From an uncultured delta proteobacterium (GTDB lineage Bacteria; Myxococcota_A; Polyangia; Fen-1088): a stretch of DNA of 64,000 nucleotides. The DNA lies in NCBI GenBank assembly GCA_963796685.1, contig CAWCMR010000025.1, forward strand, positions 608,001 to 672,000, read 5' to 3'. The notes beneath the pieces are model-generated. The model was given only the letters and a program-made list of their open reading frames with translations, was not told where the DNA came from and did no database searches. Below are positions 11,777-20,951 of this stretch, one piece after another. Each line of letters starts with the position of its first letter. Position 1 is the first letter of the stretch. The translations under genes and the position numbers were made by a program.

Positions 11777-11852
11777 CCTGAAAACACCTCGCCCCGCGGA
11801 GCGGGGAGAGGTCGCCGAGCGCAGCGAGGCGGGTGAGGGGCTGTCACGTCTC
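11777..11852 (+). repeat. Palindromic intergenic repeat (REP/RIME-like), intact copy
   Basis: CCTGAAAACACCTCGCCCCGC-GGA-GCGGGGAGAGGTCGCCGAGCGCAGCGAGGCGGGTGAGGGGCTGTCACGT. A near-identical inverted copy is split by the intron (18401-18444 + 20520-20560). Confidence 0.85.
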
Positions 11853-11890
11853 ACACCTGAAGGATCCGGGCTTCGGCCCGGCGGCGTTGC

Positions 11891-17288: not shown

Positions 17289-18227
17289 TCACCCGCGCAG
17301 CTTGGTCACCATGGCAACAAACTCGGGCGGCGGCGGCGCGCTGAAGCGCAGCCGCTCGCCCGTGACCGGGTGATCGAACCCGAGGGTCGCCGCGTGCAGC
17401 AGCAGACGGTCCGAGGGAATGGGCTTTCCATTGCGGCGCAGGAGATCGCGGATGTAGACGGACTCGCCCACCAGGGGATGGCCCTGTTCGGACAAGTGGA
17501 TGCGGATCTGATGCGTGCGGCCGGTCCGCAGGCGTACCCGGCACAGCGTGGCGCCGCGCAGGCTCTCGATGACCTCGACATCGGTGATGGCGTGCTGGCC
17601 GTCGCCGAAACGCTTGGAGCTGCCGCGCAGCCCGTCGCCGCGGTTCTCGATCAGGCGCGATTCGATGCGGCCGGCCCGCACCTGCCCTTGCGCCACCGCG
17701 GTGTACTCGCGCTCGGCCAAGTGCTCCTTGAAGATCTTGTGCAGGCCACGCTCGGCCAATTTGGTCTTGGCAAAACAAACCAAGCCCGAGGTGTCCTTGT
17801 CGATTCTGTGAACGGTGTAGAGCGGCGTGGCCGTGGCGCGCCTGCCCTGTCTGCGCCAGGCTTCACGGACGAGGTCGAGGGCGCTGCCGCTTTCCTTGCG
17901 CTCGTAGGGCACGGTGGACACGCCCTCGGGCTTCTCGATCACGATGAGGTGCCCGTCCTCGAAGACGATGCGAAAGCCCGGGCGCTCCACGCGCCGCCGC
18001 GGATCGGGCCTGCCCATGTTCCAGGCCACGTTTTCGCCCCCGGCCAAGCGGTGGGCGGGCTCGATCACGCGTTCGCCGTCCACCGTCACCTTCCCCGACG
18101 CGCACAGCTCGCGCACCTGCCGCCAGCTGTGGTCCGGCAGGTGCTCGCGCAAGGCTGCGGCGAGGGTGATGGCCGGGGACGCCTTGAATTCGCCTTGACC
18201 GCAGGGCGCGCGCGTAGCGGGTGTCAT
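17289..18227 (-). CDS. RluA-family pseudouridine synthase with S4 domain
   Basis: 'KP.G', catalytic 'VHRIDKDTSG', 'TGRTHQIR.H....GHP.VG', 'LHA..LGF.HP'. Confidence 0.93.
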   Translation of the reverse strand: MTPATRAPCGQGEFKASPAITLAAALREHLPDHSWRQVRELCASGKVTVDGERVIEPAHRLAGGENVAWNMGRPDPRRRVERPGFRIVFEDGHLIVIEKPEGVSTVPYERKESGSALDLVREAWRRQGRRATATPLYTVHRIDKDTSGLVCFAKTKLAERGLHKIFKEHLAEREYTAVAQGQVRAGRIESRLIENRGDGLRGSSKRFGDGQHAITDVEVIESLRGATLCRVRLRTGRTHQIRIHLSEQGHPLVGESVYIRDLLRRNGKPIPSDRLLLHAATLGFDHPVTGERLRFSAPPPPEFVAMVTKLRG

Positions 18228-18400
18228 TCCTTCATTCCGTCGTTCAAGCTGCCATTTCTGCCACTCGGGCTGCCGATTGGCCAGCAGGCTTCCAGTCGCG
18301 TGGGCAGCCCGCCAGCTTTGCTGGCGGCGTACCATCGCGGGAAGGTATGGAAACCCTCTCAGTACCGCCGCCGGGCCGATGGCCCGGACCCTTCGGTCAT

Positions 18401-18444
18401 GAAACGTGACAGCCCCTCACCCGCCTCGCTGCGCTCGGCGACCT
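18401..18444 (-). repeat. 3' part of the palindromic repeat (3' exon of the intron)
   Basis: Reverse complement matches 11809-11852. Confidence 0.85.
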
Positions 18445-20519
18445 GTCGAGTAGCCAGGGGAGGTTACCCTCCCCCAGCTCTCACAGAACCGGACTTGTGG
18501 GCCTCACATCCGGCTCTTCGGGACGCTGGCGTTCGGGAGCGACCCGTAGTCCAGCGCCGGCATTGCTGCCCGCAGCTATCCTGGCTCCAGGGCCGGGTCC
18601 ATGAAGTCCAAGGCGTGATGGTCCTTCCACCGCTCGGCCAGGCTGACAAGCCCGCGTTCGGCAAAATATGCGTTGCGCAGTCCTCGTTCAACTACCGATG
18701 TGTGGCTCAGCGCCCACCAGGAGCGATGCCCCTTGTAGACCCCTTGCCACGCGGTTTTCGGTCTCACCCCCAGGCTGATGAGGTGTCGTGCGATGAAGCG
18801 TCTGCGTTTCCAGTGCCGTAGCACTATCGCTCGCAGCCGCCGCCTGATGTGTGCGTCGAGTGCCTGCAGCGTCCGCTCTTCCGCGGCCGTGCAGATACAG
18901 AAGAAGCCGATCCATCCGAGCAAATACGCGTTGACCTGTTTGATGCAGCCCTTGAGGGACTGCCCAAGGTTTCGCGGCGTCAGCTCTCGGACCTTCTCGT
19001 CAATGCGGCTTTTGCTCCGCGCCGACGGCAGCACCTCCGCTTCCCCCGTCAGCGGCTCGCGCCGCAGCCGGAATCCCAGAAAGTGCCGCTCTTCCGGTCG
19101 GGCCACCGCGCTCTTGGCCAAGTTCACCTTCAACCGCATCCGGCCTTCGATGAACTTGACCACGCTGGCCATCACACGCTGACCCGAGCGCTCGCTTCCG
19201 ACGTAGATGTTGCAGTCGTCCGCATAGCGCACGAAGCGGTGACCGCGTTGGGCAAGCTCGCGGTCGAGCTCGTCCAGCACGATATTGCTCAGTAACGGCG
19301 AAAGCGGACCACCTTGTGGCACTCCTTCTTCCGTCGCCACCACCACTCCGTCGGGCATCACCACCTTGGCTTTCAGCATCTGCCAGATGAGCTCGATGAG
19401 CCGCCGGTCCTTAACCCTCTGTTCTAGCCGCGCCACCAGCCGTTGCCAGTGGACCCGGTCAAAGAACTTTTCCAGGTCGAGGTCGACCACCCATTCGTAC
19501 CCTTCCTCCAGATACTGCTTGGCCTCGGCGATGGCCGTGTGACAGCTGCGCCCAGGTCGGAAACCGTGGCTCGACGGGTGAAACGTCGGCTCATAATGCG
19601 GACCGAGCACTTGGTGCACGGCCTGCTGAACCACGCGGTCCACCACGTTCGGTATGCCAAGGCCCCGCCGCCCGCCACCGCTCTTCGGTATCCATACCCG
19701 CCGGATGTCTCCGACTCGGTATGTCCCGTCGAGCAGCGACCGCGACAGCGCCGGTATCAGCGTCCCCAACCCCTTCGCCACTTCCCCCACGCTTTGCCGG
19801 TCCGGTCCAGGTGCGCCTTTGTTGGCCTTCACTTGCTCGAACGCTCTTTTCAGGTTTCCTTCGCTCGCTACCTCCTCCATCGTCATGGGCGGCAAGGTCC
19901 TCTCTTCCTCGTTCCCCGACTTCGGCACCTCGCTCCGCGCAGGCACGGGTTGGCCCGGATCCGCTTGGGCGGTGGTCCCTTTCGGGTTGTCGGCTGTCTC
20001 GGGAAACAGTCCGAGCTGCCTTGCCTCTTTGCTGGCCGTGGTCGCCTTCCCTCCCCGCCTTCTGGCGGTTGGAACCGGCTTTCGCCGGCCTTCCGGTATT
20101 ACGCGACCATCCGACTCCTCTTGTCCCTTCTTCATCTCGTCCTTTCGTTCTCGATGAATTCCGCTTGCGATTCCTCGCCGCGGAGGCCAAGAGGTCTCTC
20201 CGGGTAAGAACGCAGAACTTCGCACCGACTCCGTCGCCACTACGCGGGCCGCCCGACGAATATTGGGCTTTGCCGCCGAAGGCCAGCTTGCCCAGCGGTA
20301 CCCACGCCTTACGGCGCTTCACTTTCGTTCGGTTCGGCGCTGCACCATAGACTTCCACCAGACACCTCCTCGCGGGAGACGGGCCTTGCGGCCCGTCTGG
20401 CCTGGTGCTCCAGACCGGCGCCCTTGTCTCGTAGGTGGGAGGTTCCCTCCGTCAGGGTCCCCAGAGGACTTGGCTATTTCATGGCTTCACCTCTTGTTCT
20501 GCGTCCATGCCGGACGCAC
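18445..20519 (-). mobile_element. Group II intron (IIC-like), full length
   Basis: 5' end GTGCGTCCGGCATGG at 20519. Short domain V GAGCCGGATGTGAGGCCCACAAGTCCGGTTC at 18516-18486. Domain VI ends ...CTACTCGAC at 18445. Removing the intron restores the repeat seen at 11777-11852. Confidence 0.93.
18576..20135 (-). CDS. ltrA: Group II intron reverse transcriptase/maturase (no HNH endonuclease)
   Basis: 'KGAPGPD', 'R.LGIP.V.DR..QQA', 'S.GFRPGRS', 'DLEKFFD', 'G.PQGGPLSPLL.NI', 'RYADD', 'FLGF', maturase X domain. Start at 20135 (RBS AAAGGA) or 19886. Confidence 0.95.
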   Translation of the reverse strand: MKKGQEESDGRVIPEGRRKPVPTARRRGGKATTASKEARQLGLFPETADNPKGTTAQADPGQPVPARSEVPKSGNEEERTLPPMTMEEVASEGNLKRAFEQVKANKGAPGPDRQSVGEVAKGLGTLIPALSRSLLDGTYRVGDIRRVWIPKSGGGRRGLGIPNVVDRVVQQAVHQVLGPHYEPTFHPSSHGFRPGRSCHTAIAEAKQYLEEGYEWVVDLDLEKFFDRVHWQRLVARLEQRVKDRRLIELIWQMLKAKVVMPDGVVVATEEGVPQGGPLSPLLSNIVLDELDRELAQRGHRFVRYADDCNIYVGSERSGQRVMASVVKFIEGRMRLKVNLAKSAVARPEERHFLGFRLRREPLTGEAEVLPSARSKSRIDEKVRELTPRNLGQSLKGCIKQVNAYLLGWIGFFCICTAAEERTLQALDAHIRRRLRAIVLRHWKRRRFIARHLISLGVRPKTAWQGVYKGHRSWWALSHTSVVERGLRNAYFAERGLVSLAERWKDHHALDFMDPALEPG

Positions 20520-20560
20520 CTCCCCGCTTCGCTTCGCTACGCGGGGCGAGGTTTTTCAGG
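20520..20560 (-). repeat. 5' part (hairpin) of the palindromic repeat (5' exon of the intron)
   Basis: Minus strand reads CCTGAAAAACCTCGCCCCGC-GTAGCGAAGCGAA-GCGGGGAG, matching 11777-11808 with a longer loop. Confidence 0.85.
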
Positions 20561-20600
20561 TCAGGGTTTCCATATCGGTGATCTGGTATAGACAAACGTC

Positions 20601-20951
20601 ATGGACACCGCCCCATCGCTTGTCGACGAGCTTCGCGCATTCGTTGCCGAGCGCGACTGGAGTCAGTTCCACGATCCCAAGAACCTGGCCATGCTGCTGG
20701 CCTCGGAGGCCGGCGAGCTTCTGGCCGAATACCGCTGGGTGCGAAACGACCAGGCCGACGCCTTCTCGCACGAACCCGAGGCCCGCCAGCGCATCGCCAA
20801 CGAGATTGGCGACGTCGGCATCGCGCTCATGCTGCTCTGTGACCGCACCGGGATCGATCTGCGGGCGGCCATGCGCGACAAGCTGGCGAGAAATCGAATT
20901 CGCTACCCCGTGGAACAGTCGAGGGGCCGGGCCACCCGGCCGGTGGGCTGA
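20601..20951 (+). CDS. MazG-like nucleotide pyrophosphohydrolase (dCTP pyrophosphatase 1 type)
   Basis: 'F.AERDW.QFH.PKNLA.....EAGEL', 'E.GDV', 'K...N..RYP'. Confidence 0.92.
   Translation: MDTAPSLVDELRAFVAERDWSQFHDPKNLAMLLASEAGELLAEYRWVRNDQADAFSHEPEARQRIANEIGDVGIALMLLCDRTGIDLRAAMRDKLARNRIRYPVEQSRGRATRPVG

Follow-up and report, generated by a model that had tools for sequence, protein, structure and literature searches.

The stretch of DNA analysed in this work (64,000 nt of contig CAWCMR010000025.1 from an uncultured delta proteobacterium, hereafter the window) carries a group II intron at positions 18445-20519 on its minus strand. The reading that best accounts for the data is that of a mobile intron of class IIC, composed of a ribozyme and a reverse transcriptase (RT)/maturase without an endonuclease, which has recently multiplied to at least 11 near-identical copies in its genome by landing beside DNA hairpins; we put the probability of this reading at about 0.85. 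Identity, class, limits and copy number of the intron could be read directly from the assembly, every readable insertion site has a hairpin and an RRAG-like word, and every one of these sites has empty paralogues elsewhere in the genome.

The limits of the intron (2075 nt, complete, from GTGCG at 20519 to ...CTCGAC at 18445, where the 3' terminus reads ...GGCTACTCGAC) were set by Rfam and by the other copies, which have the same ends, and they agree with the GUGYG / AY end signature of group II introns (GTGCG and ...GAC). Both Rfam models scored above their gathering scores, RF02001 for the domain I-IV part at 20379-20209 on the minus strand over the full model length (79.7 bits, E 2.7e-14) and RF00029 for domains V and VI at 18518-18445 on the same strand (46.6 bits), and the intron RNA outside the open reading frame (ORF) amounts to about 515 nt. 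The distal part of domain I (20209-20379, minus strand; RF02001) contains the stem-loop of exon-binding site 1 (EBS1) and, in the epsilon-prime bulge region, which reads UCUGGUGGAAG in the Rfam alignment, the word UGGAA at the place of the consensus AGGAA, the class IIC trait being an 11-nt bulge with AGGAA. Domain V (18486-18516, minus strand; RF00029 alignment) is 31 nt long instead of the usual 34 and is made up of an AGC triad, a 9-bp basal stem, an AA bulge, a distal stem of 3 bp (GUG/CAC), as short as that by which class IIC is recognised, and a 5-nt loop. In domain VI (18445-18483, minus strand; RF00029 alignment and fold) the A at 18451 is bulged and, with a distance of 7 nt to the 3' end, is a candidate branch point; domains V and VI together fold with z = -6.3 with respect to shuffles. 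Toor et al. (2006; PMC1702495) characterise class IIC by a small ribozyme, a distal stem of domain V that lacks 2 bp in comparison with IIA and IIB, the AGGAA bulge, a domain V triad that is usually CGC for AGC, and a pairing of 3-4 bp between intron-binding site 1 (IBS1) of the exon and EBS1.

The intron-encoded protein (ORF at 18576-20135, minus strand) has 519 residues from its ATG, with RT and maturase (X) domains and a YADD motif; an upstream GTG start at 20240 would make a protein of 554 residues. A Pfam scan found RVT_1 (4.8e-43) and GIIM (2.4e-15) and no HNH or other endonuclease domain, and the group II RT/maturase model TIGR04416 scored 372 bits with a cut-off of 300. The solved structures matched best are those of class IIC, namely the GsI-IIC RT (369 bits, full-length) and a IIC maturase of the E. 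rectale type (301 bits), versus 133 bits for LtrA (IIA) and 86 bits for the 6me0 maturase (IIB). On its RT and X domain content, its scores to solved relatives and its domain V stem, the intron is assigned to class IIC. The closest proteins found are 65%, 59%, 58% and 54% identical and come from metagenome-assembled genomes of other phyla. It was also observed that residues 1-85 (19881-20135, minus strand) form a basic, low-complexity N-terminal extension which is not in the GsI-IIC RT; several relatives match from residue 3-14 onward, so that the extension is common to the subclade.

The 5' exon of the window copy ends with the hairpin CCTCGCCCCGC-13 nt-GCGGGGAG (20520-20551, minus strand), the final G of which is at 20520 and is followed by the intron. 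Ahead of this hairpin lies the left end of a composite repeat (20552-20571, minus strand; GGAAACCCTGA and then CCTGAAAAA), which is common to the intron copy on contig C13 and to an empty copy of the repeat in the window, and the repeat continues in the 3' exon (18349-18444, minus strand), where 41 nt that equal 11809-11849 are accompanied by another hairpin, CCGGGCCATCGGCCCGG, and by AGGGTTTCC. The empty copy is located 6.6 kb from the intron at 11777-11890 on the plus strand, and the intron would correspondingly be inserted at 11808/11809 in it. The hairpin half CCCCGC-loop-GCGGGGAG ending at 20520 (minus strand) has one other match in the window, at 11792-11808 (plus strand), with a mean of 0.15 matches in shuffles and two matches reached by 2 of 100 shuffles, and the 41 nt past 18444 (minus strand) equal 11809-11849 (plus strand) with zero mismatches, any match to them being present in 0 of 100 shuffles. 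As both flanks match 11792-11849, excision of the intron, with 20520 joined to 18444, restores the repeat which is intact at 11777-11852. No target duplication was present at the window insertion. The initial annotation had proposed this join and the equivalent empty site, an insertion on the 3' side of the hairpin, a short domain V with an AGC triad and a class IIC intron lacking an endonuclease, and all of this was borne out by the flank matches, by the sites of the other copies, by the RNA alignment and by the protein domains and structural relatives respectively.

The neighbours of the window copy are a pseudouridine synthase gene (17289-18335, minus strand) and a MazG-like gene (20601-20951, plus strand). 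The window copy, for which alone gene context was determined, thus sits in a divergent intergenic region, and the hairpin does not, for this reason, terminate a gene lying upstream on the intron strand. A terminator scan of the window returned one site, on the strand opposite to the intron, with 2.7 expected in shuffles, and so does not favour a terminator on the strand of the intron.

Two further observations on the repeat itself can be added. Read on the opposite strand, the target hairpin has a T-run behind it and looks terminator-like both at the occupied site (20525-20558, plus strand) and at the empty one (11790-11803, minus strand), in numbers not above those in shuffles, and termination in one or both directions may be a function of the repeat. 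The 128-nt composite repeat with its intron is in turn bracketed by GGAAACCCT...AGGGTTTCC (18349-18359 and 20561-20571), and in two RNA-library runs, which represent a relative of approximately 93% identity, contigs join 18359 to 20563 via one T and skip the repeat together with the intron, with a short side of 21 nt only; this hints that intron and repeat are nested insertions.

In the genome assembly to which the window belongs (7.3 Mb in 26 contigs, 88.6% complete) there are 11 full copies of the intron with identities of 99.76-100% and seven variable alignment columns; the ten copies besides that of the window are 99.76-99.95% identical and have ends identical to the base. This copy number is a lower bound, and one copy begins a contig. 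The ORF is intact in seven of the 11 copies. In 30 related genomes, 12 of which are of the same genus, no copy with more than 82% identity and no full-length match was found, and the burst of copies is therefore recent and specific to this genome.

Insertion sites could be read for ten copies, the eleventh having 1 nt of 5' exon only. At all ten the 45 nt upstream of the intron fold as a stem-loop (-8.6 to -14.8 kcal/mol with DNA parameters), the 3' end of the hairpin lies 0-10 nt ahead of the site, so that insertion is always on its 3' side, and the rebuilt targets have extra pairs spanning the site. An equally good hairpin is present in this position at 15% of background sites (9188 of 60000 sampled RRAG/NAGG sites), and its presence at ten sites out of ten is thus far beyond chance. 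The 5' exons end in ggag (four sites), gaag (two sites), atag, agag, gagg or tagg (one site each), and the first base of the 3' exon is c at seven sites, a at two and t at one. None of the ten hairpins is followed by a T-run, and no sequence conservation was seen across the ten sites upstream of the last approximately 4 nt, which means that there is no IBS2.

The terminal loop of the EBS1 stem, GCCUUCGG (8 nt; 20276-20283, minus strand; Rfam alignment), contains the proposed EBS1 CUUC at 20278-20281, which is complementary, with G-U pairs, to the exon ends GGAG, GAAG and GAGG; the initial annotation had suggested a check of domain I for a pairing with the exon end. Covariation of loop and exon end in six lineages argues for such a pairing: the loop GCCUUCGG goes with RRAG in the present intron, GCAACGUA with CGTT in L087/L057, GCAACUGA with GGTT/TGTT in L026, GCCAACAG with TTG in L015, GCCAUCCA with TGAT/GGGT in L016/L017, and ACCUCCAG with GAG in L014. 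An EBS1 of this composition would explain why the intron keeps away from classical terminators with their T-runs. The relatives L026, L027 and L029 (46% protein identity) are inserted in the classical pattern of a hairpin plus T-run, and related IIC introns in other bacteria are found after classical terminators or other hairpins.

All ten of the rebuilt empty sites have uninterrupted matches in the genome (junction-spanning counts of 52, 30, 54, 10, 10, 66, 75, 6, 6 and 1), and they can be sorted into six or more repeat families of unrelated sequence; empty copies exist in every family, and some families form tandem arrays with units of 75-80 bp. For the window family, which has 46 scored matches to the empty composite repeat and a hairpin module with 167 genome occurrences, a count of empty and occupied junctions, as proposed by the initial annotation, gave 51 uninterrupted cases of GCGGGGAG followed by AGGTCGCC and two occupied ones (the window and C13), in keeping with a dispersed palindromic repeat of which most copies are empty. 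At both occupied junctions of this family the intron is inserted at one and the same base and the loop is of the 13-nt variant, and a third copy lies within a variant of the same hairpin, which are the observations that could be brought forward for an intron homing by sequence to one repeat of the repetitive extragenic palindromic (REP) type, with all other insertions being rare off-target events. The third copy is however displaced by 3 nt along the variant, just 2 of 53 junctions in the window family are occupied, the remaining seven of the ten readable copies are distributed over four or five further families, the stems and loops of which are unrelated, and the only sequence common to all sites is the 4 nt before the insertion; we therefore consider homing to one repeat to be very improbable. 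As the sites span at least six unrelated families, targeting is by structure plus approximately 4 nt and not by homing to one repeat. The proposal that a REP-like repeat is the landing site of this lineage consequently fails for this one repeat, which accounts for two of ten copies, and holds for repeated palindromic DNA in general (ten of ten); a sequence-specific use of the window repeat has to be given up, given that the other copies are at unrelated sites, which is what the initial annotation itself had said would speak against it.

The repeats are dispersed, palindromic and genus-wide. That of the window is present in ten of 12 same-genus genomes and in one of eight genomes of the other families of the class, and because it is found across the genus it predates the intron. 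A search for the REP-associated Y1 transposase PF01797 gave no matches in the genome of the window (88.6% complete), for which reason the repeats are termed REP-like only. It was further observed that palindromic modules form long tandem arrays of near-identical units, without unique spacers and with periods of 75-80, 102 or 372 bp (C25:1059650-1060900, C25:1054850-1055160, C25:2111413-2112051, C21:64201-66494 and C8:379087-383871). The first of these, with a hairpin period of 75 bp, was considered as a CRISPR array and rejected; near-identical units with no unique spacers identify it as a tandem minisatellite.

A different origin for most of the copies would be duplication or recombination of intron-bearing repeats, and not retrotransposition. 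Two copies on C8 are identical and occupy neighbouring units of a 79-bp array, and the flanks of C25:1543397 and C11:75849 are identical for 80 nt, as would be expected from such a process. Past the repeat unit, however, the flanks diverge both in this last pair and between the window and C13, there are at least six target families, and in each of them the empty copies far outnumber the occupied ones. Duplication as the source of most copies is for us an improbable explanation.

Some DNA and RNA-library contigs end at the limits of the intron. In the DNA run X1 two contigs join 18444 to 20520, the shorter side being 37 nt; these were considered as an empty allele of the window locus and rejected in view of this short side and of the 51 paralogous empty junctions. 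In the RNA-library run X16 a 2076-nt contig of approximately 95% identity covers exactly 18445-20520; its interpretation as excised intron RNA was rejected, the break being at a repeat boundary where DNA contigs break as well, and the library may hold DNA. A decayed remnant left by a related IIC intron was also observed at C25:1549877-1550238, 4.6 kb from a full copy and adjoining an attC-like array, with 88% DNA identity to the last 146 nt of the intron and 64% protein identity over residues 415-456.

The association of the insertion sites with repeats was compared with two null models, both of which are weak, and not every copy counts as an independent event. Repeated sequence makes up about 6.7% of the 18-mer positions of this genome. 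A strict model, which asks for a perfect stem of 7 bp or more with a 3-5 nt loop and for RRAG no further than 4 nt away and which fits only four of the ten used sites, placed 202 of 586 candidate sites (34%) in repeats, or 182 of 409 (44%) when restricted to sites outside a crude coding mask which covers 45% of the genome, and an energy-based model which captures all ten used sites placed 658 of 9188 candidates (7.2%) there. The association observed, ten sites out of ten, exceeds all three figures (34%, 44% and 7.2%). Much of the excess could nevertheless stem from the loss of insertions in genes: any hairpin with RRAG may suffice, with the repeat association reflecting survivorship and no preference for repeats as such. 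We hold this explanation to be nearly an even bet. It draws on the strict model, in which a third or more of the candidates are in repeats already (34%, and 44% outside the coding mask), on the position of all 11 copies outside this mask, and on the used families being alike in RRAG alone; it has to contend with the low figure of the looser energy-based model (just 7.2%) and with the probability of ten out of ten at a rate of 44%, which is approximately 3e-4 if the sites are independent and approximately 0.007 for six independent families. A more far-reaching proposal, which we put forward tentatively and on balance doubt, is that of a IIC sublineage which has specialised on palindromic repeats that are dispersed and GC-rich, a third niche after those of the terminators and the attC sites, with an EBS1 tuned to the purine-rich 3' flank of the stem and a preference for long imperfect stem-loops over unique hairpins. 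If this were true, the genus-wide repeats would be ready-made neutral landing pads which allowed a burst to at least 11 copies after a recent horizontal arrival.

Returning to the mobile IIC intron that lands beside hairpins, a pathway through single-stranded DNA and the replication fork, and current activity, are what we infer for it. As in other IIC introns there would be no homing to a long sequence. The RNA-protein particle would reverse-splice into single-stranded DNA at the 3' flank of a stem-loop, with the EBS1 loop CUUC reading about 4 nt of the 5' exon (RRAG-like) together with the first base of the 3' exon, mostly C, and complementary DNA would presumably be primed from the nascent strand at the fork. 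Purine-rich 3' flanks of GC-rich palindromes would suit this EBS1, the palindromes coming from several dispersed and tandem repeat families that are specific to the genus, and the window copy would be one such insertion between two divergently oriented genes. According to Zimmerly and Semper (2015; PMC4424553), introns lacking an endonuclease take the nascent strand of the replication fork as a primer, and the insertion sites of IIC introns are terminator motifs or attC sites. The sense strand of the intron is the G-rich strand in ten of 11 copies when 100-kb flanks are used and in nine of 11 with 25-kb flanks, and on the 2.1-Mb contig the copies are in minus orientation at 0.48-0.63 Mb and in plus orientation at 1.38-1.54 Mb, with the switch around the minimum of the cumulative skew at approximately 1.38 Mb. 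Such an orientation bias fits with entry into the lagging-strand template. On C25 the cumulative GC skew was also observed to rise after its minimum at approximately 1.38 Mb, at which point the intron copy 1381851-1383927 is situated, and this suggests a replication origin near 1.38 Mb on this contig.

It should be noted that several observations weigh against a mobile IIC intron directed by hairpins. The domain V triad is AGC and not the CGC usual for the class; CGC was treated as typical of class IIC and not as defining it, and since the relative L015 (58% protein identity) also combines AGC with a 3-bp distal stem, as against CGC in L026 (46%), we read AGC as a trait of a subclade and as no ground for exclusion from IIC. 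The window target taken as a single hairpin has no more than the stability usual in such GC-rich DNA (z = -1.1 and -1.7 with respect to shuffles), and it is the recurrence of hairpins at all ten readable sites that exceeds chance, not the stability of this one. Between the perfect stem and the site there are anything from 0 to 10 nt, the exon ends atag and agag would pair with EBS1 at two to three positions only, and EBS3, which in class IIC recognises the first base of the 3' exon, was not located. Four of the 11 copies (C25:483846-485921, C25:1381851-1383927, C13:680090-682165 and C12:26453-28528) have an ORF broken near codon 196 by a 1-nt insertion at intron position ~974 (C in three copies, G in one), so that they are either defective copies mobilised by the intact protein or assembly errors. 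The two identical C8 copies, 79 bp apart within their 79-bp tandem array, indicate that some copies may be duplications and not separate insertions, and gene or repeat orientation could equally produce the orientation bias. The DNA and RNA-library contigs provided no spliced-exon RNA evidence, and no splicing or mobility was seen.

Well-known IIC introns of the terminator type are B.h.I1 of Bacillus halodurans and GsI-IIC of Geobacillus stearothermophilus. The present intron is like these in having RT and X domains only, a short distal stem in domain V, a small ribozyme, an IBS1-EBS1 pairing of 3-4 bp and no IBS2, and in its multi-copy, intergenic occurrence on the 3' side of stem-loops. It is unlike them in the lack of a T-run at the ten hairpins, in the purine exon end RRAG with an EBS1 of CUUC and in the AGC triad; in addition the T-run of the window repeat is on the opposite strand, every hairpin used is in a repeat family, and the protein has about 85 N-terminal residues more than the GsI-IIC RT. 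Insertion of IIC introns after terminators "or other inverted repeats" is already established (PMC1702495).

With the IIC-attC introns of the S.ma.I2 type the present intron shares a target that is an imperfect stem-loop and at the same time a repeated element, and entry is at a site inside an extended stem. It is set apart from them by its hairpins, as the ten targets differ from the attC-like element of the genus, and by protein identity, which is 42-45% to same-genus introns at that element versus 54-65% to the relatives from other phyla. In the same genus other IIC introns were observed at the end of an imperfect palindrome of approximately 95 nt, in arrays beside integron integrase genes. 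Integron integrase-like genes score above the TIGR02249 cut-off (340-474 bits), and in three genomes they have adjacent same-strand arrays of the approximately 95-nt palindrome (integron-related loci G010:C15:282618-327121, G004:C17:93644-99300 with L102 and L113, and G001:C2:127252-134119; in the genome of the window C22:232551-235640, C9:33503-34444, C6:1518-2459 and C25:1550984-1567071); from these sequences the genus appears to carry chromosomal integrons. Six further RT genes, 34-40% identical to that of the intron, were noted in the genome of the window (C25:752675-753544, C8:663195-663995, C8:673029-673763, C11:68868-69737, C6:215457-216326 and C6:278225-279293), three of which gave an identical alignment (37.8% over 304 residues); the six probably represent further group II introns or RTs related to them, and some are near attC-like elements.

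Palindromic repeats are known as targets of other mobile elements. In a table of Tobes and Pareja (2006; PMC1525189) a group II intron of Pseudomonas putida KT2440 is listed with two of nine copies at REP elements, and the insertion sequences (IS) ISPpu9, ISPpu10, ISPa11 and ISPsy8 are reported to target REP elements with an association of up to 100%. The P. putida element is likewise a multi-copy bacterial group II intron found in part at palindromic repeats, whereas for the present intron all ten readable copies are in palindromic repeats of several families. The IS elements equally use dispersed palindromic repeats as sites, but these are DNA transposons with transposases, in contrast to a retroelement which would read a stem-loop plus 4 nt by RNA pairing. 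A search of a partial literature collection, without supplements, returned no description of a IIC intron with all of its sites in REP-like repeats. We regard the intron as a clear example of known behaviour and not as a new kind of element, with a target niche that has possibly shifted.

With 11 near-identical copies, ten readable sites, at least six hairpin families and dozens of empty paralogues for each, this genome is a natural data set on the target choice of IIC introns. It defines the site as a stem-loop plus approximately 4 nt, which are enough, and it indicates that a change in the EBS1 loop shifts an intron from terminators with T-runs to purine-flanked palindromes. For annotation it is a warning that many contig breaks and "repeat" calls in metagenome-assembled genomes of this kind are IIC introns inside repeats. 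If the preference for repeats is true, short palindromic repeats would constitute a reservoir of safe sites in which retroelements can expand without harm to genes, which would bear on how introns and repeats accumulate together in the large genomes found in soil and on how targetrons directed to hairpins are designed.

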